The notes under the pieces are model-generated. The model saw only the letters and a list, made by a program, of their open reading frames with translations, ran no database searches and was not told the DNA's origin. Of a stretch of DNA of 28,919 nt, positions 12,455 through 28,919 are shown piece by piece. Every line of letters starts with the position of its first letter. Position 1 is the stretch's first letter. The position numbers were made by a program, and so were the translations under genes. The DNA is from a virus (taxonomy: Duplodnaviria > Caudoviricetes): positions 1-28,919 of the IMG/VR virus record IMGVR_UViG_3300006105_000085; one strand, given 5' to 3'.

Positions 12455-12520
12455 GATTTGTTACCTTTTTTACGTTAGAACTGGTCTTCAATCGGGGCCA
12501 GTTCGTCTACCCGTACTGCA

Positions 12521-12800: not shown

Positions 12801-12950
12801 TTATAATTGTAATGTTACCATGACTAAACCTACATTCCCTAGAGCGTACCCTAAGAATGAGATTCCCATGCCTACTTGGCCTTTCATAAAAAATTGTATT
12901 GCAACAATCGTATAAACGACACCAATAAATCCAATTAACCAAGAGTTCAT
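12801..12950 (-). CDS. Small two-TM membrane protein (49 aa; not in ORF track)
   Basis: MNSWLIGFIGVVYTIVAIQFFMKGQVGMGISFLGYALGNVGLVMVTLQL; ATGA overlap with upstream gene. Confidence 0.75.
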   Translation of the reverse strand: MNSWLIGFIGVVYTIVAIQFFMKGQVGMGISFLGYALGNVGLVMVTLQL

Positions 12951-14101
12951 TTAAAGTCATCCTCAGCGGTTTCTTTAACACGAACCAATTTTGGTTGTCC
13001 TTCTGGACGTAATACCAAATCACCTAACCAAGCGGTTACTTGTCCTTTTGGCCCTAGCTTTTCTAATGCTGCAATAGATTTAAGTTTGGGTTGTTCCCAA
13101 ATAACTTGGGCGTCCATACCTTTTTCTACAAGCACAGTAGCGGCTAAAGCATGGTCGCTAATTTTGCGATGTGTTACTGTGGTTGTTAGTTTAAATCCAG
13201 GTGGCACTGTGTTACATGTAACGGCTTTATCTAAAGCGTACTCTTCAATATCGTTTACCCAAGATTTTAAGTTTTGGGCTTTGATAAGGACTTCGGCAAC
13301 TTCTTCTTCGTTGAGGAGGGGCGCGGCTTTGAACTCGAGACGGGCGAGTTCTGTGTTGAAATCGCTGCGCGCTCTGCACGTCGCTTTAGCACGGCAGAAT
13401 TGGCACCATTCGCCTGGGAGGAATTCGCCTGAGCCGCTCCACGCTTTCTTGGCTTTTGGCTTGACGAAGTAATTGGCCCAGTCGACAAGTTTACTGATGC
13501 TGGTACCATCGGTACTGATACTGTCAAGTCGGGGCTGGTGGATCGTGTAACTGACTTCTTTGATCTCTGGCCATTCTTCTTTGAACTTGGCGTAGGCTCC
13601 GAGGGCATAGAGTCTAAGTTGCGGGTTATCTTGCGCATAGACCGGAACGCCTCTTCCGAACTTGAGGTCGATGACACGAATGGAGTGCTGAGAAAGTATA
13701 ACCACATCGGCTGTACCAAAGCCGTCAGGAACCCATTCAGAAAAGTCGACACGCTGTTCGAACAATGGCGTGTCAGCCTCACCAATTTGAGAACGAACGT
13801 ATAGTACATAATTATCAACGTTAGCTTCAAAATCTTCACGTTCGTCAAAAGTGTAGTCTTTGTAGATTGGGTGGGTCTTGATAATTTCGTATTCACGTTC
13901 ATATTCTTCGTGTCCAATTTGGTTAAAATGAAGGCGCAGGCGAATTTCACCCAAAGAATGGGCAAGTGTTCCCTCGGCAGAAAAATCAATGCCATTGGAA
14001 GAGCGCTTTTGTTCGGGAAGTGTTGCTTCTAAACGAGCTGAAGGGGTGCAAGAAAGCCACCGTTTAGAGCCAGAAGCAGATAAGAGGGCATGTGCAGTCA
14101 A
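12947..14101 (-). CDS. DUF2800-family Cas4-like PD-(D/E)XK exonuclease
   Basis: HALLSASGSKRWLSC, EGTLAH, EQRVDFS, GFGTADVV, IDLKFG, NPQLRLYALGA, WCQFCRAKATC (Fe-S Cys); canonical neighbour of DUF2815 and polA. Confidence 0.9.
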   Translation of the reverse strand: MTAHALLSASGSKRWLSCTPSARLEATLPEQKRSSNGIDFSAEGTLAHSLGEIRLRLHFNQIGHEEYEREYEIIKTHPIYKDYTFDEREDFEANVDNYVLYVRSQIGEADTPLFEQRVDFSEWVPDGFGTADVVILSQHSIRVIDLKFGRGVPVYAQDNPQLRLYALGAYAKFKEEWPEIKEVSYTIHQPRLDSISTDGTSISKLVDWANYFVKPKAKKAWSGSGEFLPGEWCQFCRAKATCRARSDFNTELARLEFKAAPLLNEEEVAEVLIKAQNLKSWVNDIEEYALDKAVTCNTVPPGFKLTTTVTHRKISDHALAATVLVEKGMDAQVIWEQPKLKSIAALEKLGPKGQVTAWLGDLVLRPEGQPKLVRVKETAEDDFK

Positions 14102-14142: not shown

Positions 14143-14153
14143 TACTAATACGC
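14143..14153 (-). promoter_or_regulatory. Phage promoter-like motif GCGTATTAGTA (copy 1, upstream of DUF2800 nuclease)
   Basis: Exact 11-mer found four times on the - strand; this copy lies right after a terminator. Confidence 0.7.
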
Positions 14154-14205: not shown

Positions 14206-14598
14206 TTAGGCTTTTAGGGCGGCAATCAATTCTGCAATTTCTTTATTGAAATCCACCTTGGTTTCCACTTTAGCATCTAATTTCACATCGCGGGATTCTT
14301 TGTAGGTGTCTTGAAATTGACCACGAACTGCTACTTCTACCATACGGGTATTGAAGTTTTTATTTTCAGCATTAGCAAGCATTAGACGCTCCCAATGAGC
14401 TTGACTATGTACCAAAGCCATATCAAGAGCTTCAGCAAACTCTGGATGGTTCTTTTTCATTGTTTCGGCAGCTGCTTTGGTGATACCTAAATCAGACCAT
14501 ATCATCTTTTGAGATGCACCTTGCTTACCTAGCTCGATCATACGATCGCACATTTGGGGTTCAAATTTGTATTTTGTTTGGGGTTTTTTAGCTGCCAC
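14206..14598 (-). CDS. Terminase small subunit-like HTH protein
   Basis: KYK..MCDRMIELGKQGAS...LGI...HPEFAEAL is the N-terminal HTH pattern typical of TerS; helical C-terminus. Confidence 0.6.
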   Translation of the reverse strand: MAAKKPQTKYKFEPQMCDRMIELGKQGASQKMIWSDLGITKAAAETMKKNHPEFAEALDMALVHSQAHWERLMLANAENKNFNTRMVEVAVRGQFQDTYKESRDVKLDAKVETKVDFNKEIAELIAALKA

Positions 14599-15000: not shown

Positions 15001-15022
15001 ATATTCCTTAAAACAGTTTAGG

Positions 15023-15093
15023 GGTGACCAATGGGATTTGAACCCATTCTAAGACAGTCACAATGTCTGGTGCTACCATTACACTATGGCCAC
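15023..15093 (-). tRNA. tRNA-His(GUG), atypical (no encoded G-1, no encoded CCA)
   Basis: Acceptor GTGGCCA/TGGTCAC, D arm GTGT-AATGGTA-GCAC, anticodon arm AGACA-TTGTGAC-TGTCT, T arm ATGGG-TTCAAAT-CCCAT, discriminator C73. Confidence 0.9.
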
Positions 15094-15442: not shown

Positions 15443-15585
15443 GTGTGTAAATGCCCGCATTTTGGTACAAAATCCTCACTGTCTTGGGTGTTGTGAGAAT
15501 GCCAGTGTTCTATGAAGGCGCGCTGGCAGCCTTTGGCCTTCTTTACGGCCAGAGTGGGGTTAAGGAGCGTCTCACGACGTGTCCT
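15443..15585 (-). ncRNA. Candidate multi-hairpin RNA / structured 5' leader
   Basis: Consecutive hairpins AGGA..CGTC-GTGA-GACG..TCCT, TGGCC/GGCCA, TGCCAG/CTGGCA, TTCTCAC/GTGAGGA, TTTTG/CAAAA, starting 6 nt after promoter motif copy 2. Confidence 0.5.
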
Positions 15586-15590
15586 ATATT

Positions 15591-15601
15591 TACTAATACG
15601 C
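15591..15601 (-). promoter_or_regulatory. Phage promoter-like motif GCGTATTAGTA (copy 2)
   Basis: Exact 11-mer, intergenic, heading the leader-tRNA-TerS unit. Confidence 0.7.
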
Positions 15602-15620
15602 TTTTTTGAAGCCTTCCGCC

Positions 15621-15863
15621 CTAGTCCGGAATAATGATCTTGCGGACCGGCTTTTCCTTTTTCTTTTGCTCTTCTTCCATCATCTTTCTGAAGGTTGGCA
15701 TCATCTCATTGACAATCAGCTTGGTCATTGCCTCTGCCTTGAGCCGGTCTTCCATCTCTTTTTCTTCGCTGTTTCGCTTAGTTCTCTCATCCACCGCGTT
15801 TGCAATGTTGTTGCCAAACTTGCGGTGCTTTAAGAACTGGCGGATGAAATTTTCATCACTCAT
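15621..15863 (-). CDS. Hypothetical charged protein (80 aa)
   Basis: Track ORF trimmed to the MSDENF start, overlapping the upstream stop. Confidence 0.7.
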   Translation of the reverse strand: MSDENFIRQFLKHRKFGNNIANAVDERTKRNSEEKEMEDRLKAEAMTKLIVNEMMPTFRKMMEEEQKKKEKPVRKIIIPD

Positions 15864-16764: not shown

Positions 16765-16930
16765 GCTTTTTCCTTAATTCATTTTCAACAGCGGCAATCT
16801 CTTCAGGGCTGTCGCAAACCCACATAGTCAATATCTTATCAAACAAAGAGGTATCAATGTCTTCTACACCAGAGATGGTTTCAAATATCGGATAGCCTTT
16901 GTACTCATGCTCAACAATAAATGTGCTCAT
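16739..16930 (-). CDS. Hypothetical protein
   Basis: 63-aa ORF, ATGA-coupled. Confidence 0.65.
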   Translation of the reverse strand: MSTFIVEHEYKGYPIFETISGVEDIDTSLFDKILTMWVCDSPEEIAAVENELRKKHARSSQPA

Positions 16931-17232
16931 AAACCAAGTTCCTTTTTAATAAATTCAACACCTTTTTCAAAATGATACCGCCAATACTTTTCTGTTACTT
17001 TTAAATCTTTATATGTAAGCCCTTCTAAAAAACCATGAATAATTTCACGTTGTTTTTCGGGCATACGTTCATAAACCAAACGTCGTATATCTAAAATATC
17101 TTCAGGGCGCCATGGAAGAAATGGGTCAATTACATCCACGGGAATACCATCCATATCATCTTGCTCAATTGGATCTAACTCTTCATCGGATAAACGTGGG
17201 GTTGCAGCCTTGATTATACTTGTTTTTTTCAT
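16927..17232 (-). CDS. Stand-alone sigma-70 region 4-like protein with acidic N-terminus
   Basis: IRRLVYERMPEKQREIIHGFLEGLTYKDLKVTEKYWRYHFEKGVEFIKKEL resembles the sigma4 consensus LPExQRExIxL..EGLTYxEIA..; start ATG 17232 lies 6 nt after promoter motif copy 3. Confidence 0.55.
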   Translation of the reverse strand: MKKTSIIKAATPRLSDEELDPIEQDDMDGIPVDVIDPFLPWRPEDILDIRRLVYERMPEKQREIIHGFLEGLTYKDLKVTEKYWRYHFEKGVEFIKKELGL

Positions 17233-17234
17233 AG

Positions 17235-18587
17235 TCATACTAATACGCAATTTAGGTCATTTAAAAGTGCTTCTTGCAAATTTATTTTGCCTTCCAATAC
17301 TTTTATAACGCGCTCGTCAATACTGTCAGACACGGTCAGGTGATGAATGATAACCGGTTTTTCTTGCCCTTGGCGGTAGATCCGAGCATTCGCCTGGATG
17401 TAGTTCTCTGAGCTCCATGGTAGATCGAACCAGACCGTCTGTGCTGTGTCTCCAACGTTGCACTGTAGATTGAGCCCGATACCTCCGGATTGCGGGTGGG
17501 CAAGCAGCATACGAATCTTGCCACCACGCCACGCTTCAATGTTGTCATCGTCCAGCACCACCGCTTCTGGGAACTGAAGACGTATTCGCTGGAGCGAATG
17601 CTTGAAATGATAGAAGACAAGTGTGGGGCTGGAAGATTCTTCCATGATCGACTCAAGGTATTCCAGTTTAGCGCGGTGTACTTCTTGGACATCTCCTTCT
17701 TCAGTATAGACCGCTCCCGATGTAAATTGGAGCATCTTGTTCGCCAGTGCCGCTGCTGTTGGAGCTGTGATTTTTTCTTTCTTGATGTCAACGACCATGT
17801 CTTTTCTAAGTTCGTCATATTTACTCCTTACGTTTTTGTCTATCTGAATAGGGTGGTACAGCTTGGTGCACTCTGGTAATTGCAAATATTCTTCTGCCTT
17901 GAGTGAGAAGCAAATGTCCTCAATTTTGCCTTGGATCTGCTTATCGGCGCCCGGCTTTAGTTTCCAACTATACACGACGCGGGTGTGGCGGTTCATCTGA
18001 TCTGGCACCATGTACTTATCCCTAAACTTGGTAAGGCTAGTCTCTAAACGTTGCCCTAAGTCCAATATACCCACCTGGGACCAGAGATCAGACATGCCCT
18101 GAGGGGTAGGTGTGCCAGTGAGGATAACGCGGCGCTTAAAGCCCTTTAAATGCTTTTTGAGTGCCTTAAAACGCTTGGTGCTAGGATCCTTAAACCGGCT
18201 GCTCTCATCAATTACTAAGTTAGTGAACACTAACATATCTGCGGCGTCTGTAAGCCAAACTACGTTTTCAAGATTTATCAAATAAACATCGGCTTTGGTT
18301 TTCAGTGCGGCTTCTCGCTGGGCTGGTGTGCCCATGATTTTGACAACTTTTAACTGGCTCAAATGCTCCCACTTCTTGACTTCTGTATCCCAGACTGTCT
18401 CTGCTACTCGTTTGGGGGCTATGATCAATGTCTTGCCATCGAACTGTTCGGCTATGATTGTAAGTGTGGTTGTAGTCTTGCCAAGGCCTGGGGGTAGAAA
18501 GAGCCCAAGGTTTGGAATGGTCGTAGCTTTCTTGATTAGTTCTTTTTGATACGGGTGTAGCTGGTTTCTTTTGAGCATCTTTATCAT
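17235..18587 (-). CDS. SNF2-family (SF2) helicase/ATPase
   Basis: PPGLGKT (motif I), VIDESS (II), LTGTP (III), SGGIGLNLQ (V), QANARIYRQGQ (VI). Confidence 0.93.
   Translation of the reverse strand: MIKMLKRNQLHPYQKELIKKATTIPNLGLFLPPGLGKTTTTLTIIAEQFDGKTLIIAPKRVAETVWDTEVKKWEHLSQLKVVKIMGTPAQREAALKTKADVYLINLENVVWLTDAADMLVFTNLVIDESSRFKDPSTKRFKALKKHLKGFKRRVILTGTPTPQGMSDLWSQVGILDLGQRLETSLTKFRDKYMVPDQMNRHTRVVYSWKLKPGADKQIQGKIEDICFSLKAEEYLQLPECTKLYHPIQIDKNVRSKYDELRKDMVVDIKKEKITAPTAAALANKMLQFTSGAVYTEEGDVQEVHRAKLEYLESIMEESSSPTLVFYHFKHSLQRIRLQFPEAVVLDDDNIEAWRGGKIRMLLAHPQSGGIGLNLQCNVGDTAQTVWFDLPWSSENYIQANARIYRQGQEKPVIIHHLTVSDSIDERVIKVLEGKINLQEALLNDLNCVLV
17238..17248 (-). promoter_or_regulatory. Phage promoter-like motif GCGTATTAGTA (copy 3, in last codons of the helicase gene)
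   Basis: Exact 11-mer immediately upstream of the sigma4-like gene. Confidence 0.65.
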
Positions 18588-19033
18588 TCATGTTTGTTAC
18601 TCTTGTCACGGTTTTGTTTTTTGGTTAGGAGTTGTAAGTTCCAAGGCACATGCAAACCTGATACATTTTTACCATTAAGTGGAATGATGTGGTCAACTTC
18701 CCACAACTGTCCTGTAAATTGTTGCAAAATTTTTGCACGTTTGTACCATATTTTAATTTCCTCAACAAAAACATTTTTAATCCATTTGGGTTTTCTTTGA
18801 TTACGTTTGGCTCTTACCTTTGCTGCAATTGCGTTCATGTTACCACGATTATCAGCTTGCCAATTTCTGATACGCTGGTTTTCTTTTTCATATTTAAAAG
18901 GACAACGCCAAAATTCAACAAAGTATTTGTCTTTTTTGTTTTTAAGATTGCCGTAACCCCAAAACCGAAAACCGTCATCACGATAATCACCTTTTTTAAA
19001 AGGCTGTCCGGTGTCAGGATTTAAGCGCCGCAT
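18584..19033 (-). CDS. Freestanding HNH endonuclease
   Basis: WEVDHIIPLNGKNVSGLHVPWNLQLLTKKQNRDKSNK; start at MRRLNP (19033) preferred; AT-richer than flanking genes. Confidence 0.85.
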   Translation of the reverse strand: MRRLNPDTGQPFKKGDYRDDGFRFWGYGNLKNKKDKYFVEFWRCPFKYEKENQRIRNWQADNRGNMNAIAAKVRAKRNQRKPKWIKNVFVEEIKIWYKRAKILQQFTGQLWEVDHIIPLNGKNVSGLHVPWNLQLLTKKQNRDKSNKHE

Positions 19034-19295
19034 TAACAAATTCCTCAACGTCTTCTTTTGATCTAAGAACATGAACAGGAAACCCCTGCTCACCCAGCTC
19101 GTCGAACACGAGCACTTGTCTTGGACTTAGTACCCCCGTTGCTGTTTTTAGTTCTACGAGGTACACTTTTTGGTTCAGAAACACTATCCGGTCCGGCACT
19201 CCCGTTATTGAGCTCAGCCATTTGAAGGAGAGCCCCGAGGACTTTTTCACTAGTTTCGTTAGATGCTGTTCTATTGCGCTTTCTAGAATTTGCAC
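19014..19295 (-). CDS. VRR-NUC domain nuclease (putative Holliday junction resolvase)
   Basis: ESAIE..GVPDRIV..VELKT..G.LSPRQ..G..VHVLRS; GGAGG RBS supports GTG start at 19295. Confidence 0.88.
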   Translation of the reverse strand: MQILESAIEQHLTKLVKKSSGLSFKWLSSITGVPDRIVFLNQKVYLVELKTATGVLSPRQVLVFDELGEQGFPVHVLRSKEDVEEFVNAALKS

Positions 19296-19722
19296 GTTTT
19301 TCATCCTCCGTTGCATAAATTGAAAATACTTGTTTAAAAATGTGTTCGCCTAAGTAGGAGCGTGACTCATCACCAATTTTAGATTCATCTTCGCCAATGT
19401 ATTCAAAGACGTGAGTTGTTGTGTGGGATACCTCATGGTAGATAATACCCATGCGCTCTAACGCATCTAGTTTTGCCATGTCTTCGTAGTTAAACACGAT
19501 AGCCATCATGGCAAACTGTGTGCCTTCTTGTTGGATGTAATGCGACTCAGCTAACCCAAGATCCAAGGAGTTATGTTTGGCAGTGATCTTGGAGTCTTTC
19601 AATGCCTGCTGAAAAGCAGCATCAGAAAAGCACACCTTGATCGTAATACCAAAGTGTCCAGTATCCGCTACGTAGTAGGGCTTATCGGCCAAAAGGGATT
19701 GTTGCTCGGAGTTCTTCGTCAC
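19090..19722 (-). CDS. HExxH zinc-metalloprotease-like protein
   Basis: IIYHEVSH...DESRSYL (HExxH plus downstream E); C-terminal ~70 aa overlap the VRR-NUC gene. Confidence 0.6.
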   Translation of the reverse strand: MTKNSEQQSLLADKPYYVADTGHFGITIKVCFSDAAFQQALKDSKITAKHNSLDLGLAESHYIQQEGTQFAMMAIVFNYEDMAKLDALERMGIIYHEVSHTTTHVFEYIGEDESKIGDESRSYLGEHIFKQVFSIYATEDEKRANSRKRNRTASNETSEKVLGALLQMAELNNGSAGPDSVSEPKSVPRRTKNSNGGTKSKTSARVRRAG

Positions 19723-19849
19723 GTTGTTTTTCCAATTCTTCCAATGTTGGTACGCCGTTTTTAAAAATAGTATCCCAGTTTTTATTAAACTGCTCTAAAT
19801 TTTGTGGTGGGATTTGTTTGTCTCCCTTGCCGCCATCGTGTTTTGTCAT
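19682..19849 (-). CDS. Small hypothetical protein (55 aa; not in ORF track)
   Basis: MTKHDGGKGDKQIPPQNLEQFNKNWDTIFK...; the GGKG..NWDxIF pattern is common in small phage proteins; ATGA-coupled. Confidence 0.7.
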   Translation of the reverse strand: MTKHDGGKGDKQIPPQNLEQFNKNWDTIFKNGVPTLEELEKQRDEELRATIPFGR

Positions 19850-20124
19850 TTTGGTTCCTTTGCTTTCTTAAGGCCGAGGGCCTTGCGTAGTTCATGGCTG
19901 TGTAGCTTCTTGCCTGGATCCTTTACCTCACCGGTTTCTTTGGCTACCTTAGCGGCTTCTTTGCGGTCAGCAAACTTGCCGTTGGATAACAGGAAGCCAC
20001 GCTTGTCTTTCTTTACGCCAGCCTTTAGCTCGATCTCTTTGTGGGAGTATGCAGCAGTGTCCTTGATAATCTTGCCGCTCTTGGTCTTGATTGCTGGTTC
20101 AACTACTTTAATCTTTGTTGCCAT
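19846..20124 (-). CDS. Basic hypothetical protein
   Basis: 92-aa Lys-rich ORF with GFLLSNGKFADRKEA..LHSHEL; AAGGA RBS. Confidence 0.75.
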   Translation of the reverse strand: MATKIKVVEPAIKTKSGKIIKDTAAYSHKEIELKAGVKKDKRGFLLSNGKFADRKEAAKVAKETGEVKDPGKKLHSHELRKALGLKKAKEPK

Positions 20125-20302
20125 TTTGGTTCCTTTGTTCTACGTGCCATTTGCACAGTTGTTTGTAATAAGCAATATCAATCTCGTACTGAATAACCTT
20201 CTTGTCATAGATTGCTTTTTGCTCTTCTAGGTCTTTGTCTTTTGGTTTTATAAACAGGCCGGCCATGAAGCCTATTAACAGTGCTATTCCTATGTCAATC
20301 AT
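20108..20302 (-). CDS. Small protein with N-terminal TM helix
   Basis: MIDIGIALLIGFMAGLFIK... (64 aa). Confidence 0.65.
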   Translation of the reverse strand: MIDIGIALLIGFMAGLFIKPKDKDLEEQKAIYDKKVIQYEIDIAYYKQLCKWHVEQRNQNGNKD

Positions 20303-20414
20303 TTCGATGGTACCTGTCGTTAGGGTTGGCCAGCATGCTGGCAATAAGCTCGTCGGTGGTTGGGAACCACTGGATGACTTTGAGCCCGTCTGCTTGGTAG
20401 ATGGTGAAGCTCAT
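20295..20414 (-). CDS. Small hypothetical protein (39 aa; not in ORF track)
   Basis: MSFTIYQADGLKVIQWFPTTDELIASMLANPNDRYHRND; ATGA-coupled and fills the gap. Confidence 0.6.
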   Translation of the reverse strand: MSFTIYQADGLKVIQWFPTTDELIASMLANPNDRYHRND

Positions 20415-20635
20415 TCTTTTCTCAACATTTTTGCAATTTGGAAACAAAGTTCAATGTGCTCTGTTGGTGAATCAGATAGCTGTACTCTTAACAGTTTACC
20501 CTCTTTGTTTTTAAGTTGGCAAATTGCTATAGCAATAGCTTCGGCAGTTGCTGATGCGGTGTTCATTGCCATAAGTTCATCAATAGATTCTTGTGCTAGT
20601 TTAGTAATTCTTTCCATTGCTTCATTGTGTGTCAT
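20411..20635 (-). CDS. Hypothetical protein
   Basis: 74-aa ORF, AGGAG RBS. Confidence 0.7.
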   Translation of the reverse strand: MTHNEAMERITKLAQESIDELMAMNTASATAEAIAIAICQLKNKEGKLLRVQLSDSPTEHIELCFQIAKMLRKE

Positions 20636-20638
20636 AAC

Positions 20639-20827
20639 CTATTCTCCTATTCCGTGGGCGCGTTCGATGGCGCGGGCGAACTCAAGGTAATTAAACTGCT
20701 CAAACGGCTCTTCATTATCCAGCGTGTAATCTGTGAATGTGCACTGTTCCATAATTTCTCTAATTTGTTGATTAGTCAACGGGGTGCGTTGCGCATCTTG
20801 CCGGTCTTGTGTGGTGAAGGTGGTCAT
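20639..20827 (-). CDS. Hypothetical protein (PLTxxxI...FARAIE type)
   Basis: 62-aa ORF sharing LT..I/FARAI motifs with 21494..21994. Confidence 0.7.
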   Translation of the reverse strand: MTTFTTQDRQDAQRTPLTNQQIREIMEQCTFTDYTLDNEEPFEQFNYLEFARAIERAHGIGE

Positions 20828-21138
20828 TCATCGTCCCTCATTGGCCATTCTGTATACATCATCGGTGTCCCTACAATATGCTCTTTGCCTGTCACTGCGG
20901 CAATAAATTCATGCGGGCTGACTTTGTTGTAGCTTCCATTGATTGCTTTTTCATAGTCACCAAACTTATCCTCAAACTGGGCAATCATCATATCTGCTGC
21001 AGCGATAGAATTGTCCTGCGCTTTTACTTGCTTTTTCAACGCCTCTATTTCAGCTTGTTGCTGGCGTGTTGTGTTATTTAATTCAATAATTAACGCTGAG
21101 TTTTCTTTAAGCAAATCAGCTAGTTCATTTGCGTTCAT
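20824..21138 (-). CDS. Mini-array gene (MNANELA...RQQQAEIEALK)
   Basis: Start at the MNANELA module (21138). Confidence 0.75.
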   Translation of the reverse strand: MNANELADLLKENSALIIELNNTTRQQQAEIEALKKQVKAQDNSIAAADMMIAQFEDKFGDYEKAINGSYNKVSPHEFIAAVTGKEHIVGTPMMYTEWPMRDDE

Positions 21139-21154
21139 TTCTCTTGTGCCTTTC

Positions 21155-21250
21155 TTAGCAATGTTTACTTGCAATAATCATCATAAAAGATTGAAAAATT
21201 ACAATAATACTTAGAATTGTTATCGTTACTCTGCTCCAAAATGTAGTCAT
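21155..21250 (-). CDS. Mini-array gene, 31-aa TM peptide (not in ORF track)
   Basis: MTTFWSRVTITILSIIVIFQSFMMIIASKHC; stops inside module C read out of frame. Confidence 0.55.
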   Translation of the reverse strand: MTTFWSRVTITILSIIVIFQSFMMIIASKHC

Positions 21251-21354
21251 TTTTTTTGTGCCTTTATTAGTATTGCCATTGAATACAACAATCCAGCCAA
21301 AAATCCCGCCACAACAAAAAATGTAATATGCAATCCAATTAGTAGATATATCAT
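21247..21354 (-). CDS. Mini-array gene, 35-aa TM peptide (not in ORF track)
   Basis: MIYLLIGLHITFFVVAGFLAGLLYSMAILIKAQKK; ends in degenerate module C; ATGA overlaps. Confidence 0.6.
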   Translation of the reverse strand: MIYLLIGLHITFFVVAGFLAGLLYSMAILIKAQKK

Positions 21355-21497
21355 TTCTCTTGTGCCTTTCTTAGTAACTCTTCTAAAACATTTTCCAATT
21401 CTTCGCTTATGTAAGTCAAAAGTCTTTCATTGTCCAAATCATTGATGTTGTCGTATAAAAAAGTTGCTCTATCCCGAACTCTGTCGTATAAGTTCAT
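21351..21497 (-). CDS. Mini-array gene, 48 aa (not in ORF track)
   Basis: MNLYDRVRDRATFLYDN...EELLRKAQEK; ATGA overlaps at both ends. Confidence 0.7.
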   Translation of the reverse strand: MNLYDRVRDRATFLYDNINDLDNERLLTYISEELENVLEELLRKAQEK

Positions 21498-21994
21498 TTC
21501 TCTTGTGCCTTTCTTAGTATTGCTCTAGCAAAATCCACCATCTTTGAATCAAGACCAATCCAACTACCATTTGAATGTCTTACAAAGATTCCTTTATCTT
21601 CTGACCAATTAAATCCAGCTTCTTCTGCTGAACTAATTATTTCCTCATCTGTTAGTGTCTTTGCTGGATGGGTGTAGAGTGGAACATAACCTTCTTTTGG
21701 GTCTGGAATAATACCGCTTGCCGTTACCCAATAATCATGTTCTTCTAAATACTTTCCATACGCTACTGGTTCATTGCTAAAGACTTTTTCAAATTCAGGT
21801 ATTTCTTTAAACAATAACTCTATTTCAGCTCGCTGTTTTAAGATAACATCTAAATCAGCCAACCTAGCCAACTTCAACTCTTTCAATTCAGCTTGTTGCT
21901 GGCGTAGCAAGTCAGGTATTTCCCAAACAAGGCGGTCATACTCTTCACCTTTGAGGTAATGTTCCAACTCAACAGCTAGTTCATTTGCGTTCAT
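21494..21994 (-). CDS. Mini-array gene, 166-aa mosaic
   Basis: MNANELA..LRQQQAE..EPVAY..PLYTHPAKTLTDEEI..FARAILRKAQEK. Confidence 0.8.
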   Translation of the reverse strand: MNANELAVELEHYLKGEEYDRLVWEIPDLLRQQQAELKELKLARLADLDVILKQRAEIELLFKEIPEFEKVFSNEPVAYGKYLEEHDYWVTASGIIPDPKEGYVPLYTHPAKTLTDEEIISSAEEAGFNWSEDKGIFVRHSNGSWIGLDSKMVDFARAILRKAQEK

Positions 21995-22182
21995 TTTTCT
22001 ATCCCAAAGTGTTGTTTAAGAAACGGGCGCCATGTATCTTGCCAGTGTTTTAATGCTTCTATTTCAGCTTGTTGCTGGCGTAGCATTGCGGCGGCACTAC
22101 CTACAGGCGATGCTCGCCACTCTTCAATAGTGCAATCATAAGAAATGCTATCTAGTTCATCAGCTAATTCATTTGCGTTCAT
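21991..22182 (-). CDS. Mini-array gene, 63 aa
   Basis: MNANELAD..MLRQQQAEIEALK. Confidence 0.75.
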   Translation of the reverse strand: MNANELADELDSISYDCTIEEWRASPVGSAAAMLRQQQAEIEALKHWQDTWRPFLKQHFGIEK

Positions 22183-22415
22183 TTCTCTTGTGCCTTTCTT
22201 AAGTACTCGGCAAGTCTTTCACCATAAGTCAATGAATGTATATCCATTTTTAATGCTTCTATTTCAGCTTGTTGCTGGCGTAGCATGGTGGCGGCTTGGT
22301 CTAATTGGTCAGCAAGTCTGTCGTTAGCACCTTCTTGTACGCTCTTACGGCTTGTTGCTTGCCTACGAATTGACGCACGAATTTCCATTGCATCAGCTAG
22401 TTCATTTGCGTTCAT
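22179..22415 (-). CDS. Mini-array gene, 78 aa
   Basis: MNANELAD..MLRQQQAEIEALK..LRKAQEK. Confidence 0.8.
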   Translation of the reverse strand: MNANELADAMEIRASIRRQATSRKSVQEGANDRLADQLDQAATMLRQQQAEIEALKMDIHSLTYGERLAEYLRKAQEK

Positions 22416-22543
22416 TTTCTCACCTGTAAAAGTATTGGCCCAAGTCTATAGACATAGTATACATCGCCGCCATTAAAACGTACAGAGTTCCATTGTAATG
22501 GCTCTCCTTTAAACCATGGTGCCTTGTAAAAACGGATGTTCAT
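22412..22543 (-). CDS. Small hypothetical protein (43 aa; not in ORF track)
   Basis: MNIRFYKAPWFKGEPLQWNSVRFNGGDVYYVYRLGPILLQVRK; AGGAG RBS. Confidence 0.65.
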   Translation of the reverse strand: MNIRFYKAPWFKGEPLQWNSVRFNGGDVYYVYRLGPILLQVRK

Positions 22544-22544
22544 G

Positions 22545-22796
22545 CTATCTCCTAAATTGTGGTGTTGGTTTACGTCTGCCGAATGTTTTACGAACCTTTA
22601 ACGCCCATATACTACCATGCACCTTGTTACGCCAGCCTTGGTGCGCACGTCTAATCTTTTGCATCTTAAAGCGCGCTTTAATACGTTTTGGCTTATTATA
22701 GTAGTCTTGAACAAGGCGCCGCTTGCCAGCGTCACCGAAGATAACGCCAAACAAGCTGCGCTTGATGATGCGTGGAAAGTTAAAACGCTTCTTCAT
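22545..22796 (-). CDS. Very basic hypothetical protein
   Basis: 83-aa R/K-rich ORF within the operon. Confidence 0.6.
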   Translation of the reverse strand: MKKRFNFPRIIKRSLFGVIFGDAGKRRLVQDYYNKPKRIKARFKMQKIRRAHQGWRNKVHGSIWALKVRKTFGRRKPTPQFRR

Positions 22797-22929
22797 TCAG
22801 TTTGCCCAACATAGCAAACTCTGCATATGTCCACATCATGTCACGCACTTCTGCTGGGCTTGCACCACGGGCTACCAAACCCATGAGCGCAAACGCTGCA
22901 TACATTTCCTTTAGTTCTTGTTCAGTCAT
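22780..22929 (-). CDS. Small hypothetical protein (49 aa; not in ORF track)
   Basis: MTEQELKEMYAAFALMGLVARG...; TGATG overlap with the primase stop. Confidence 0.65.
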   Translation of the reverse strand: MTEQELKEMYAAFALMGLVARGASPAEVRDMMWTYAEFAMLGKLNEEAF

Positions 22930-25223
22930 CAAAATATCTCTCTTTCAAAGTTAGACACAGAATCAGCGTACTGCTGTGCTTTTGGTTTCAATTTTACACC
23001 ACGATACAAATACTGTACAGCTCCTTCACTACGCTTGCGATACGACTCCACATGATGTTCCTGTGTAGAGGCCGCAAACCTACGTTTGAAAGACATCTCT
23101 GTGCCAGGGTGTAAGTTTTTCTTAATCGCCCAGTGCTTATAACAAGCAAACAAATCGTCTTTATCAACCTCGCCTTCGGGTGTGAAATCCAGCGCTTCCT
23201 CAACAAACGACAGCAACGGGTTAGATAGCTCTGTCATCATTTCCAAAGAAGATTCACTAGATTTAGGTTGCACAAAACGTTCGCCTGATCTTGCTGTGCG
23301 CTTCTTATGTCCTTCAATCGCCCAGTTAAAAATACCAGCTAGCTCTTTAGACAAACGCTCTGCTAGGTTGTGATCTTCTTTACCCCAAAAGCTATTCTTC
23401 ATAATCAACACCAACATACGTCCAATCAATGCGTTAGAGTTCTCCGCCAGTTGTAGCATCTCGTTGGAATACACAATAATTCGTGTTGGTAAATACCCCG
23501 ACCATGCTTCCTTGTTCTTGCGGTTTACAGTCACAGTATCCGCACCAACAATACGTAACAACTGAGAGACAACGCCAGCTGAGCTTTTAGTTGTCACCCT
23601 CGCATCCGTAAAGGACGCAAGCTGTTTACCAAGCCATGGTTGTAGTCCAAAGGTATCGCACAACTCCTCCATCTGTGGACTTACCACATTATGTTGTCCA
23701 AGTAAGTCAGTCAGAACTCGGTTAATCGTGCCTTTACCACTACGGCGAGGCCCAATAACATTCAAAAACTTCTGTTGACGAGTGTCGCCTGACAGAATGT
23801 ATCCAAAATACTCTTGCAACAAGTTCTTTGATTCCTCATCGTCTTTCCACGCATCGTCCAAGAATTTCAACCAGTCCGGACAAGTTGCCTTCGGGTCATA
23901 CTCGAATGGTAGCGAGTTGTAAGTAAAGAATCCCAGTGAGTGCGGATACAACGTGCACGTATCCATATTGAACAGTCCATTTCGCATACTGATCAACTTT
24001 TCTGCTGGTGGGTGGTTTGCTTCAAACCCATCTAACCACACTGGTGGCTTGGCATTCGGATCATTAGCAAGGTGGACAATCGACTTAATTGCATCCAAGG
24101 CAGCATTGATGACCGCTGGGTTGGCTGTAAATGGTAGCAGATTTCCTTTCTTATCTTGCTTCTGACACTTGTCTAGCATCTTATAAAGTTGTGAACGGAT
24201 GGTCTGTTCCTCGATGCTGGTGTAGTGAGTCCCATTGTAAATAAAGAACTCTTGAGCATAGTGAACAAGACGAAATCCTCCCTCAACCTCGTATAACGAA
24301 GCTAAGAACTTACGGGCGTGGTCAAGTGGATTGGAGGCGTCTAACACGATCTCGCCCCGATCGAGTGCCTCCTTGAGCTTTTTTTGGTTCACCTTGAAGA
24401 TCAATGAGCGAAGTGTAGTCCCATGACCCCTAAACGTGTTCCACTTGTTGATGCACGAATTGATGCCAGTTGATGCGTATTTTAATGACTGTGCGCTCCA
24501 ACGATCCCACGCTTCCAGTGCTTCCACATCGCCTTGAAACTGGTGATGCAATGCCATACCAACAGCAGTCCAGTCCGCATAACCACAGTCCGCATCTAAA
24601 TGAGAAAGCAACTCATTCTCAACACGGTGAACGTCCCATCCGTCCACAGGGGGTGTGTAGTTCTCAAACGCATCACGGGTTCTTAGCGGGCGAACGGGCA
24701 TGATTCCTGATAAGTCCTGTGGGGTGTCAGGCAAGTCACCACCGAGTTTGTGTCCTGTCATGGTGAAGTATCTGCCGTTTGAGTATGCCTCAAAGCCAAT
24801 CTCGTGGTCAGCATGCGCGGCAAACTTCTCAGCACGGGTAAATATCTTTACACCAGTCCCAGAGGGGCTAACTTCACAATACCCCTGTGTGCTGTCCACG
24901 ATGTTCTGTGCGAAGTCTGTTAGGACTCCTGTATCAGGATTGCGACAATCATCAATATCAATCCCAACAAGGTCATCATCCCCAGTAAATACAAAACCAA
25001 TGCCATCAAAATCGCCATTTTCGTATGCTTTCTGTGCTGTCAAGAAGTCTACCCATGTCCCTGGGTTGGTCGAGCTACCCATACGACCATTGAGTTGCAT
25101 TGGGGTTTTAGCCCACTTCTGATTGTCAATCAGGGTATATTTCCATAAAAGAAACCGAGGAATCATCTTTAAGTCCATCGGTATCTCATCAAACTTTACT
25201 TCTAATGCTGATGGTTTAATCAT
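22929..25223 (-). CDS. Primase-polymerase/helicase (AEP prim-pol + PriCT-2 + D5_N + SF3 helicase), P4 alpha/NrS-1-like
   Basis: GIGFVF, LVGIDIDDC, EVSPSGTG; YADWTAVGMALH..WDRWS (PriCT-2); Walker A GPRRSGKGT; GGAG RBS favours ATG 25223 over 25235. Confidence 0.92.
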   Translation of the reverse strand: MIKPSALEVKFDEIPMDLKMIPRFLLWKYTLIDNQKWAKTPMQLNGRMGSSTNPGTWVDFLTAQKAYENGDFDGIGFVFTGDDDLVGIDIDDCRNPDTGVLTDFAQNIVDSTQGYCEVSPSGTGVKIFTRAEKFAAHADHEIGFEAYSNGRYFTMTGHKLGGDLPDTPQDLSGIMPVRPLRTRDAFENYTPPVDGWDVHRVENELLSHLDADCGYADWTAVGMALHHQFQGDVEALEAWDRWSAQSLKYASTGINSCINKWNTFRGHGTTLRSLIFKVNQKKLKEALDRGEIVLDASNPLDHARKFLASLYEVEGGFRLVHYAQEFFIYNGTHYTSIEEQTIRSQLYKMLDKCQKQDKKGNLLPFTANPAVINAALDAIKSIVHLANDPNAKPPVWLDGFEANHPPAEKLISMRNGLFNMDTCTLYPHSLGFFTYNSLPFEYDPKATCPDWLKFLDDAWKDDEESKNLLQEYFGYILSGDTRQQKFLNVIGPRRSGKGTINRVLTDLLGQHNVVSPQMEELCDTFGLQPWLGKQLASFTDARVTTKSSAGVVSQLLRIVGADTVTVNRKNKEAWSGYLPTRIIVYSNEMLQLAENSNALIGRMLVLIMKNSFWGKEDHNLAERLSKELAGIFNWAIEGHKKRTARSGERFVQPKSSESSLEMMTELSNPLLSFVEEALDFTPEGEVDKDDLFACYKHWAIKKNLHPGTEMSFKRRFAASTQEHHVESYRKRSEGAVQYLYRGVKLKPKAQQYADSVSNFEREIF

Positions 25224-25245
25224 ATTATTCTCCATTATCTGTTCC

Positions 25246-25256
25246 TACTAATACGC
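25246..25256 (-). promoter_or_regulatory. Phage promoter-like motif GCGTATTAGTA (copy 4, upstream of primase-helicase)
   Basis: Exact 11-mer, intergenic. Confidence 0.7.
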
Positions 25257-25283
25257 AAACTATGTTAGTGGTCACTAACCAAT

Positions 25284-25557
25284 GTCTGTCAAGTGTGTCA
25301 AAATTGCCAGTGAATTGACACACTTCTTTTACACACCCCCTATATAAATCAAGGACTTAGAGCCGATTGACACACTTGACACACTTCTTTTGTATTTTTT
25401 TAATTTTTTTAAAAAAAATAATAATAACATAGGAGAGGTAAATATAGCAAAAAAGTGTGTCAAGTGTGTCAATCCTTCGCAAGTCCTTGATTTCATTGAC
25501 TTTTTCGTGACACACTTTGATTTTGGAAGTGTGTCAATTTAGGAAGAAGTGTGTCAA
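25284..25557. repeat. Putative replication origin: TTGACACAC iterons around an AT-rich core with two IHF sites
   Basis: 8 exact and 3 variant 9-mers in both orientations; inverted arms 25346-25386 / 25453-25493; WATCAANNNNTTR matches at 25347-25359 and 25480-25492. Confidence 0.8.
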
Positions 25558-25737
25558 ATGGTATCCAAAATACAAAACTGTGGCTAAAAGTAGCCAGTTG
25601 CCAATTTTGTTCCACTTTTCTTCTTCCAAGTCACGCTGTAAGAAAGACTGGCGGTCATAAATGCCGTAGTCCCCTTCCAGTCCAGTGCAGTCACACACAT
25701 TTCTGCCCTGATTGTAGTTTCCGGTGCATTGTTTCAT
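25534..25737 (-). CDS. Small protein with Cys-rich N-terminus and C-terminal TM helix
   Basis: MKQCTGNYNQGRNVCDC...WLLLATVLYFGY; GAGG RBS. Confidence 0.65.
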   Translation of the reverse strand: MKQCTGNYNQGRNVCDCTGLEGDYGIYDRQSFLQRDLEEEKWNKIGNWLLLATVLYFGYHLTHFFLN

Positions 25738-25934
25738 ATGGCCACCTCGTAGCCCATCTGTTTGAGCATATGATAAGCCCACTTCCTAAAAGCCACCCTG
25801 TTTTCACTGTTTTGCTCGTCTCTTTCATCCCAAGCTGCCTCAATAATAAACTCCCCTGAAGGGCTATTAAATTCAATACCAATCATGTCTCCATCACTGT
25901 TGTATTGATCTACTGGTATTGCTTTGCCTTTCAT
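25734..25934 (-). CDS. Hypothetical protein
   Basis: MKGKAIPVDQY... 66 aa, ATGA-coupled. Confidence 0.7.
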   Translation of the reverse strand: MKGKAIPVDQYNSDGDMIGIEFNSPSGEFIIEAAWDERDEQNSENRVAFRKWAYHMLKQMGYEVAI

Positions 25935-26254
25935 GCTATTTCCTTTCGTGTTGATTTCTTTTCTTTCCAAGAGTCCTCAGTCCCATAGTCCCCTCGAATC
26001 ATGCTCATACGCTCGTCTTTACGGAATTCAGGCTCTATTGCCCACCATGCCTTTGATGCTTCAAGGTATTCTATCCACTCATCATTTTGTTCAAAAAACG
26101 GATGACTAAACCCAGCGATGTCCACTGTGCAAGTCACCTCGCTATGCGGGATTATGGGATGCAACCCACCCCGTCCATAAGTCCCCAGCCTTACTTTATT
26201 CCTAGCCCGTATAAAGCGGTCATAAGCTATTTGTTGCTCTTTAGTCAGCGTCAT
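25931..26254 (-). CDS. Hypothetical protein
   Basis: MTLTKEQQ... 107 aa, overlapping the sigma gene end. Confidence 0.7.
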   Translation of the reverse strand: MTLTKEQQIAYDRFIRARNKVRLGTYGRGGLHPIIPHSEVTCTVDIAGFSHPFFEQNDEWIEYLEASKAWWAIEPEFRKDERMSMIRGDYGTEDSWKEKKSTRKEIA

Positions 26255-26813
26255 TTTCTTCTTCCAGTTTGTCAAGATTTAAAGCGTCCAATGAGCTAGG
26301 CTCTTGGAGTAAGTAAAATTTTAATTGATTGATGCGCTTAACAGATTTGTTAAGGATAATTGATACCTCATGGACAGTTGGAGGTCGCCCCAAAGTCTGA
26401 GTCAATGCTCGCTCTGTGTAGGTCATCTTGCGTATCTCTTCCCTCACTTTGATGGGTATACGCACTAGGTTTTCGGTGTTGTCCAGTCCACGCTCTACAC
26501 CACGCATAATAAAGCGTTTAGCGTAGGTGGCAAACTTAGCCCCGTTGGTAGGCTTCCACTGCATAGCGGATTTTAATAAAGCCTCGTTGCCCAGTCCAAT
26601 TAAGTCCTCTTGTGGCACACGACTGTGATTCCATGCGGTCATCTTACGCACTGTATAAACCACGAATCTGAGATTATGCTTGACCAGTTGCTCTAAAGCA
26701 TAGTCATCCCCTTGTGCTATGCGCTCAGCCAGCTTGTATTCATCGGCAGAAGATAGCACGGGGATACCATACAGGGATTGTAAATAGTCCGTTAAAAAAT
26801 CATTTTTGCTCAA
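26241..26813 (-). CDS. Phage sigma-70-family factor, regions 1.2-2-3 only (no region 4)
   Basis: DYLQSL..PVLSSADEYKLA (1.2), LVKHNLRFVV (2.1), EDLIGLGNEAL (2.2), KFATYA (2.3), VRIPI, LGRPPTVHEV (3), SSLD then acidic tail and stop; colinear with RpoS/RpoD by eye. Confidence 0.88.
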   Translation of the reverse strand: MSKNDFLTDYLQSLYGIPVLSSADEYKLAERIAQGDDYALEQLVKHNLRFVVYTVRKMTAWNHSRVPQEDLIGLGNEALLKSAMQWKPTNGAKFATYAKRFIMRGVERGLDNTENLVRIPIKVREEIRKMTYTERALTQTLGRPPTVHEVSIILNKSVKRINQLKFYLLQEPSSLDALNLDKLEEENDAD

Positions 26814-28739: not shown

Positions 28740-28819
28740 ACATCCTCCTTAGTTAAACAACAAACACAGTTTCTTAAATTAAAACACATTTTCATATTAG
28801 GATAAACCCTAACGTGGCT

Positions 28820-28919
28820 AGTCCAGTCACACCTACCCAGTCCAGTCACACCTACCCAGTCCAGTCACACCTACCCAGTCCAGTCACACCTACCCAGTCC
28901 AGTCACACCTACCCAGTCC
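28820..28919. repeat. 19-bp tandem repeat (AGTCCAGTCACACCTACCC), about 5.3 copies, truncated by window end
   Basis: Exact head-to-tail copies, no spacers, unit not a multiple of 3. Confidence 0.95.

Follow-up and report, generated by a model that had tools for sequence, protein, structure and literature searches.

How does a phage-encoded sigma factor that stops short of region 4 find its promoters, and could a separate protein supply the missing part? This question is raised by a 28,919-nucleotide stretch of Caudoviricetes DNA (IMG/VR record IMGVR_UViG_3300006105_000085, hereafter the window), a linear virus record that is ≈45% complete. Its minus strand carries a gene for a short sigma70-family factor and a gene for a small sigma4-like protein (Table 1), which a preliminary description of this DNA placed 9 kb apart (9.0 kb as measured) and read as the candidate halves of a split sigma factor. 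From the window and its relatives, we consider it on balance probable that the short sigma and the separate region-4-like protein constitute a two-step switch acting on the host RNA polymerase (RNAP).

The short sigma has an RpoS/RpoD-like fold. Pfam models Sigma70_r1_2, Sigma70_r2, and Sigma70_r3 matched its 190-residue open reading frame (ORF) above their cut-offs, and the region 4 model was absent. Its AlphaFold2 (AF2) model matched RpoS (E 5e-11, TM score 0.73), and its sequence aligned with residues 96-265 of Staphylococcus aureus SigA, ending just past EPSSLD, which is the start of region 3.2. These results agree with the earlier assignment of the gene to regions 1.2 through the 3.2 linker, with no region 4. 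The homologues are mostly 187-190 residues long among the 120 listed of 358, and all 140 of 140 distinct closed sigma ORFs from the loci analyzed end 71-73 residues past R(I/L)P, within a three-residue window. This fixed end point implies that a one-off truncation is not the explanation and rules out a simple truncation or frameshift of a sigma gene. Adding 333 to a residue number of the short sigma gives the equivalent position in Escherichia coli RpoD. As stated in the preliminary description, the Trp dyad and Q437 are lost, being replaced by R100 (W433), F101 (W434), and R104 (Q437); H455, R423, and Y425 are replaced by K122, N90, and A92, respectively, and T429, Y430, R441, R451, and E458 are kept. 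The short sigma thus lacks the W433/W434 dyad and Q437 that mark group 1 sigma70 factors, and the whole sigma family of this clade lacks region 4 on the same polypeptide, a hallmark of groups 1 and 2. Alternative sigma factors commonly lack the W-dyad (PMC4593229), and E. coli sigma70 without region 4.2 still transcribes from an extended -10 promoter (PMC2613000). Overall, there is strong genomic support for the view that this region-4-less sigma would be functional.

A phage-specific extended -10 motif, a 10-mer repeated in upstream regions (GCGTATTAGT in the window), occurs at 109 exact sites in 12 genomes (the window and 11 relatives; 4-14 sites each), compared to 0-2 sites in five Markov simulations per genome. 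The window has 4 sites versus 0.39 expected. We read the element as G-14, A-12 T T A G T-7. An ATG stands exactly at +1, seven bases past the last T, in 28 of the 109 sites, and T-1 and A+1 are found in 93% and 97%, respectively, of the class II sites defined below; together, these leaderless starts and the T-1/A+1 preference fix the promoter register. In sigma70, the -14 G:C pair is read by E458 and R441 (PMC4593229; PMC2613000), and the invariant G-14 of the phage motif matches the retained equivalents of both residues in the short sigma.

The sites fall into two classes. The box GGGC(G/A) is present at exactly -36..-32 in 61 of the 109 sites, including up to 8 unrelated promoters of a single genome, and no further offset in the interval -59 to -21 has it. 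We call the motif without GGGCG class I, and the motif with GGGC(G/A) at -36..-32 class II. By arm, the box accompanies 49 of 60 virion-arm sites and 12 of 49 replication-arm sites, 11 of the latter 12 heading the unit of the terminase small subunit (TerS) gene. Sites are orthologous across genomes, so that a Fisher p-value for the arm counts overstates independence and a count by gene group is fairer. The box is invariably present in six gene groups, namely pre-GroES (10/10), TerS unit (9/9), portal (8/8), MDDFKK (8/8), post-capsid (7/7), and one ejection-protein group (5/5). Five never have it: the DUF2800 gene (0/10), the primase gene (0/9), the sigma4-like gene (0/5), the single-stranded DNA-binding protein (SSB) gene (0/5), and the polymerase gene (only 2 sites). 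The first virion-arm promoter is mixed, with a box in 2 of 9 cases. These gene-group counts bear out the earlier expectation of two promoter classes and give strong genomic support to the existence of both as predicted promoters; the -35-bearing class lies before virion and packaging genes.

The best evidence that the short sigma would read this motif is covariation between the two. Three -10 variants were found, GCGTATTAGT (25 sigmas), TTGCATTAGT (66), and TTGCATTA(T/A)T (16), and they require two changes only on a tree of 107 sigma rows, in which 4 rows were typed by hand and from which the 33 of 140 sigmas without a motif site were left out. The -16/-15/-13 variant tracks nine diagnostic sigma columns, two of which, K122 (the H455 position) and R124, lie in the region 3.0 helix. 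The -8 variant tracks five diagnostic columns, four of them at positions 89, 90, 92, and 96 in region 2.3; T96 is the equivalent of T429, the fulcrum of the non-template strand (PMC4496690). Each promoter change therefore coincides with changes in the part of the sigma that is expected to touch the changed base.

The two genes differ in how they are preceded by this motif. On its own strand, the sigma gene has no motif site upstream in 11 of the 12 genomes, some of which are fragments with only 1-5 kb upstream, and the site in the twelfth is only the wrap-around of a circularly permuted record. Because of this absence, the short sigma is likely made from host promoters; a scan for the host sigma70 consensus found 36 matches versus 37.5 expected, which is no enrichment and did not locate the early promoters. 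A leaderless class I site specific to the small gene is present in 5 of the 12 genomes, the window included, which agrees with the earlier proposal that a phage promoter without a -35 element produces the sigma4 module. In the other 7 genomes, it follows SNF2 or an inserted gene and has no site of its own. In two other records, class II promoters oppose the sigma operon [L139:9919-9949(-), L139:11500-11530(-), L140:3388-3418(-)] and could give late antisense shut-off of early genes.

The open frame of the small gene extends from 16927 to 17250. Since the ATG at 17232 coincides exactly with the predicted +1 of the phage promoter, a leaderless protein of 101 residues is its likely product. The protein begins with an invariant acidic motif (PRLSDE.D..E). 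An AF2 model of 103 residues, started from the ATG at 17238, shows a low-confidence acidic N-terminus followed by three confident helices (45-58, 61-71, and 83-101), with no helix of at least 4 residues at 72-82 (DSSP). Structural alignments to SigR4 and SigE4 are shorter by 4 residues, which agrees with a shortened first helix of the helix-turn-helix (HTH). The recognition helix is present and invariant (E83 K84 W86 R87 H89, 90/90), and the scaffold helix is ≈4 residues short and not helical in the model. The C-terminal peptide quoted in the preliminary description is present in the protein, and the short first HTH helix noted there fits both the model and the alignments.

Fold comparisons point to sigma region 4. 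In a wide VIA structure search, sigma chains filled the top 24 rows, counting some rows taken to be sigma from their names and one titled only "RNA-guided transcription complex." The best match was region 4 of SigR (Z 7.7, rmsd 2.0 over 57), compared to Z 4.4-5.2 for LuxR-type proteins, where a VIA Z under 8 may reflect a common arrangement. Sigma4 domains also ranked first in Foldseek, but with E of at least 0.6. Among the 120 listed members of the family, which has 448 proteins, 44 matched Pfam Sigma70_r4_2 at E≤0.5 (best 5e-5), and the 25 NCBIfam families listed for these members include several sigma models and no RinA or ArpU model. For the small protein, the Atlas listed a Sigma70_r4 cluster at 0.92 on a low count of shared features, and the window protein by itself had no Pfam or PHROG match at E≤0.1. 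We conclude that the small protein probably has a sigma4 fold, which upholds the earlier claim at moderate strength, and that its candidacy as the missing region 4 has moderate, indirect support. Diverged second copies of the sigma4-like gene are found in the early region of three records (L137:8885-9190, L006:8982-9278, and L435:1313-1691), ≈0.5-0.8 kb upstream of the sigma gene in L137 and L006, where this distance was measured. L137 also has a normal copy. The diverged copies retain the shortened HTH and a similar last helix and are possible decoys or early regulators; searching with the L137 paralog retrieved no sequence other than the paralog.

The two genes are distributed together. They lie 7.2-10.6 kb apart in the 11 relatives. 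Among records that are at least 90% complete, both are present in 4 of 4 picked by the small gene and in 7 of 7 picked by sigma, amounting to 10 distinct records. Of the 26 records picked by the small gene (from 80 loci), 14 contain sigma; 11 of the 12 others have too little upstream DNA, and the twelfth has 10.4 kb, which is inside the observed range of distances. Conversely, 29 of the 49 records picked by sigma contain the small gene, and the remaining 20 are fragmentary; one record fell outside the search. By contrast, sigma, the small gene, and the bipartite promoter were each found in 0 of 24 records of the sister group represented by Caulobacter phage RW (22 picked by length from 80, and two from GenBank; 12 of the 24 are ≥90% complete). 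Two positive controls of the promoter scan gave 6 and 8 sites. A fused form, sought as the small-protein family inside proteins of 194-2000 residues, was not found at E≤0.1 among 7999 candidates, a negative that is weak evidence. Of the sequence-based outcomes that the preliminary description would have taken as refuting, none occurred: the small protein has a probable sigma4-like fold, the two genes were not distributed independently, and none of the 140 distinct closed sigma ORFs carried a fused region 4.

From these observations of gene structure, promoter layout, covariation, and co-distribution, we propose the following mechanism. Host sigma would make the short sigma early in infection, from host promoters. 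On core RNAP, the short sigma would read the extended -10 element through regions 2 and 3.0 alone and would transcribe the primase, DUF2800, SSB, DNA polymerase, and sigma4-like genes. The small protein would then dock at the beta-flap, where the place of sigma4 is vacant, and recognize GGGCG at -36..-32, which would turn on or boost the terminase, portal, capsid-region, tail, and ejection-protein promoters. Association of both pieces with core RNAP is predicted, and the promoter layout predicts that both pieces would be required at class II promoters only.

Several observations weigh against this proposal. We infer the small protein to be the GGGCG reader, and likewise its docking on RNAP and the timing. 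Its HTH misses the residues described above and has no proper scaffold helix, the match of its fold is of middling quality by both VIA and Foldseek, a profile of its family gave no region-4 match in E. coli RpoD, and among PDB sequences searched with it, none at E≤10 was a sigma chain. Both the recognition helix and the -35 box are invariant in the sample, which is consistent with their pairing and provides no covariation test for the -35 half, and the covariation at -10 amounts to two evolutionary events rather than to statistics, on a tree with 4 rows typed by hand. GGGC(G/A) is absent from 11 of the 60 virion-arm sites, 7 of these being the first virion-arm promoter; of 80 primase promoters, 1 has it, and in genome G011 a class II site lies among replication genes. 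The SSB and polymerase genes of the window have no phage-motif site. Finally, ORFs 25931-26275, 25734-25970, and 19090-19722 and a DUF3310 gene are also present in 11 of 11 relatives, so that any of them could be the reader; the co-occurrence that the preliminary description asked about holds in 10 of 10 distinct near-complete records but is not specific to the pair within the clade.

Class I promoters are also less uniform than first described. In 52 of 80 primase promoters, a palindrome (WTTCACA-N-TGTGAAW, ≤3 mismatches) is centered at -41/-42, which implies that many middle promoters are not purely -10-only and suggests a further regulator. The palindrome occurs at this position in 11 of 48 class I sites versus 0 of 61 class II sites, and it is absent from the class I sites of the window. 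The earlier idea of -10-only middle promoters is thus too simple for the relatives of the window. Examples of the palindrome are G066:40910(-) and G014:36082(-); it is mutually exclusive with GGGCG and also occurs between the divergent arms. The primase promoter of the window has, by eye, a different inverted repeat (GTTAGTG-AC-CACTAAC) over -39..-24 [~25263-25280 (-)]. A fuller version of our proposal is a modular sigma switch in which sigma(1.2-3) would serve replication promoters alone, transcribe its own missing region 4, and then become a -35-reading late sigma in trans, with the binder of the -41 palindrome as a possible second, interchangeable upstream module. We judge this version only a little likelier to hold than to fail.

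Two other explanations of the GGGCG box are unlikely, to a similar degree. In one, the small protein is a late activator, perhaps a dimer, that binds DNA at GGGCG in a role like that of RinA or ArpU and recruits the short-sigma holoenzyme rather than docking at the flap as a subunit. The small gene is the last of the replication module, and the TerS unit has a class II promoter at its head, which parallels RinA, and RinA has, in its C-terminal half, limited similarity to region 4, yet RinA is no sigma (PMC3152322, as far as its available text goes). In Caulobacter phage RW, the gene after SNF2 (gp060, L283:28942-29328, annotated as hypothetical) encodes a Trans_reg_C winged-helix DNA-binding protein and possible late regulator, which implies that this slot holds regulators. 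However, RinA requires sequences >155 bp upstream (PMC3152322, same portion), and GGGCG is one non-palindromic box with a single exact spacing in the -35 position; the presence of sigma models and absence of RinA/ArpU models among the listed NCBIfam families also argue against this role. In the other explanation, which we regard as equally doubtful, another conserved ORF reads GGGCG, and the sigma4-like protein is a flap binder like gp33 of phage T4, a block on region 4 of host sigma70, or the binder of the -41 palindrome. The shortened HTH counts for such a non-reading role, several unannotated ORFs are as much a part of the core as the small gene, and gp33 of T4 is a flap binder that reads no DNA (PMC2988020). 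The diverged copies of the small gene point the same way by their location. Early regions are the usual place of anti-host genes. On the other side, the last helix of the small protein has invariant charged and aromatic residues, no other scanned ORF of the window gave an HTH family in Pfam, and the palindrome is variable and missing in many members, including the window, whereas the recognition helix is invariant. Blocking of host sigma4 at the beta-flap, which the preliminary description offered as an option, found no positive support and may be a side role.

It is much less likely that the short sigma alone acts on all sites, that GGGCG strengthens late promoters through a host factor or a core-enzyme contact, and that the small gene is unrelated. 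All sites do share one extended -10 motif, on which a sigma70 without region 4.2 can work (PMC2613000). But the small gene is limited to the same clade and stands under the promoter of the short sigma, and the locking of a GC-rich 5-mer at -36..-32 counts for a sigma4-type reader and against an UP element. A GC-rich 5-mer at one fixed position is the pattern of a sigma4-type reader, and UP elements are AT-rich. A reading of the sigma gene as decayed and truncated, or of its product as a dominant-negative decoy that binds core, at which the loss of the Trp dyad and Q437 might hint, is scarcely credible given the fixed end point, the promoter variants that track DNA-contact residues of the sigma, and the common lack of the W-dyad in alternative sigmas (PMC4593229).

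Besides its minus-strand replication arm (primase-helicase, VRR-NUC, SNF2, DUF2800, SSB, class II ribonucleotide reductase, and DNA polymerase A), the window contains an early region and, on the plus strand, the end of the virion arm (Table 1). Complete relatives are mostly 63-68 kb long, with one record of 80 kb, and several have direct terminal repeats. The GC hairpin with a T run before DUF2800 is likely the terminator of the class II unit, as judged by eye; a terminator scan did not call it. At ~12490-12520 (-), where the SSB gene of the window lacks the phage motif, there is a host-like TGTTATACT, and G071 has TATAAT at the same place, which suggests that, from one relative to another, the SSB promoter may be used by either host or phage sigma. 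Two unannotated ORFs that immediately follow the sigma gene, 25931-26275(-) and 25734-25970(-), are conserved in 11 of 11 relatives and are candidate sigma helpers or anti-host factors; an Atlas search with the 114-residue ORF after the sigma gene gave no usable match. Short tandem repeats occur near both ends of the window, as PAST-coding 12-mers at 1-170 and as GTGACTGGACTGGGTAGGT units at ~28780-28919.

Table 1. Genes and predicted promoter elements of the window discussed in the text
Feature	Coordinates	Strand	Basis and remarks
Sigma70-family factor, regions 1.2-2-3 and start of 3.2, no region 4; 190 aa	26241..26813	-	Pfam, AF2 model, alignment; TTG start
Sigma4-like protein, acidic N-terminal motif and three helices; 101 aa	16927..17232	-	Predicted fold; likely leaderless start at 17232
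Primase-helicase (PriCT_2, D5_N)	22929..25235	-	Pfam; behind class I promoter
DUF2800 nuclease-like gene	12947..14101	-	Pfam; behind class I promoter
TerS, late-type gene under class II promoter	14206..14598	-	phrog_309, E 3e-9
SNF2 helicase	17235..18587	-	Pfam; 3' end holds promoter of sigma4-like gene, which comes next
tRNA-His(GTG)	15021-15093	-	Within class II (late-type) unit
Class I motif before primase-helicase	25247..25256 (-16..-7)	-	No GGGCG; predicted +1 at 25240
Class I motif inside SNF2 3' end	17239..17248	-	Predicted +1 = ATG 17232 of sigma4-like gene
Class I motif before DUF2800	14144..14153	-	Directly behind GC hairpin with T run
Class II promoter	15592..15621	-	GGGCG 15617-15621 (-36..-32), motif 15592-15601, predicted +1 at 15585; heads run including tRNA-His and TerS genes

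By capsid, the nearest cultured relatives are Caulobacter phage RW and three others (66%); RW has the capsid protein and the replication module in common with the clade, and both sigma and the small gene are absent from it. A search of the cultured phages in INPHARED with the small gene found no match, and identity of the short sigma was <60% throughout the 30 records examined of 105 matched there. The clade is uncultured and widespread, the short sigma being matched by 211 viral and 458 metagenome stretches. The sole clade member from a cellular collection is a contig in an uncultured betaproteobacterial metagenome-assembled genome (L204); it has a class II promoter, is probably phage DNA caught in the binning, and so is no guide to the host.

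If the proposed switch is real, the middle-to-late transition would be made by a domain added to the same sigma and not by sigma replacement. Two temporal classes appear to share a single -10 reader, the class being set by the presence of a separately made region 4, which would be a new logic of phage timing and a natural two-input transcription gate. Moreover, the three natural -10 variants with matching sigma substitutions provide a natural code for how the extended -10 element and the -8 position are recognized. Defined promoters, start sites, and two small proteins make the switch testable. A literature search, with supplements and most subscription papers outside its scope, found no paper on the clade or the system.

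Like other split sigmas, the present pair comprises separate, co-distributed sigma2 and sigma4-like parts and a bipartite promoter with fixed spacing, whose function is predicted from sequence. In the portions of the literature available, known split sigmas either need both halves together or have a second half that reads no DNA. T4 gp55 and gp33, which act with gp45, resemble it as a phage split sigma that has one piece at the sigma2 site and a small one at the beta-flap and that serves late genes. Yet gp55 is like domain 2 only, gp33 has no sigma sequence similarity and reads no DNA, and the sliding clamp is needed (PMC2988020 for likeness and differences, in its available part); here, the large piece keeps regions 1.2-3.2 and the small piece is sigma4-like. 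T4 late promoters, as described in the partial sources, lack a -35 element, whereas here the late-type sites carry GGGCG and the replication promoters do not.

The genes of the Bacillus subtilis SigO-RsoA and Tn916 Sig7-Sig8 pairs are adjacent, unlike those here, which are 7-11 kb apart. For the former pair, accounts of the split point disagree. The Tn916 preprint implies that RsoA is the region-2 piece (bioRxiv 10.64898/2026.10.01.756105), in conflict with a table in PMC10141391 that assigns sigma2+3 to SigO and sigma4 to RsoA, which would be the same cut as in the present pair. In both systems, regions 2 and 4 come from two polypeptides, which read a bipartite promoter and are required jointly (same preprint); here, one class of promoters seems to be served by the large piece without the small one. 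A further proposed split sigma is Francisella MtvS1/2.

RinA and ArpU offer a different likeness, that of an activator of the terS promoter that is a small protein of phage origin and resembles region 4 to a limited extent. The binding of RinA is far upstream, and the available text of PMC3152322 does not report it with a phage sigma. In phage SPO1, gp28 and then gp33/gp34, which are cited as a two-subunit sigma in the available text of the Tn916 preprint (bioRxiv 10.64898/2026.10.01.756105), form a sigma cascade in which host promoters are followed by phage middle and then by phage late ones, which resembles the order proposed here. However, a second sigma is swapped in for the late genes of SPO1, and gp33 also inhibits host sigmaA promoters (PMC13401047, in part). 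In the clade of the window, middle and late promoters have one -10 element and differ only by the added -35 box.

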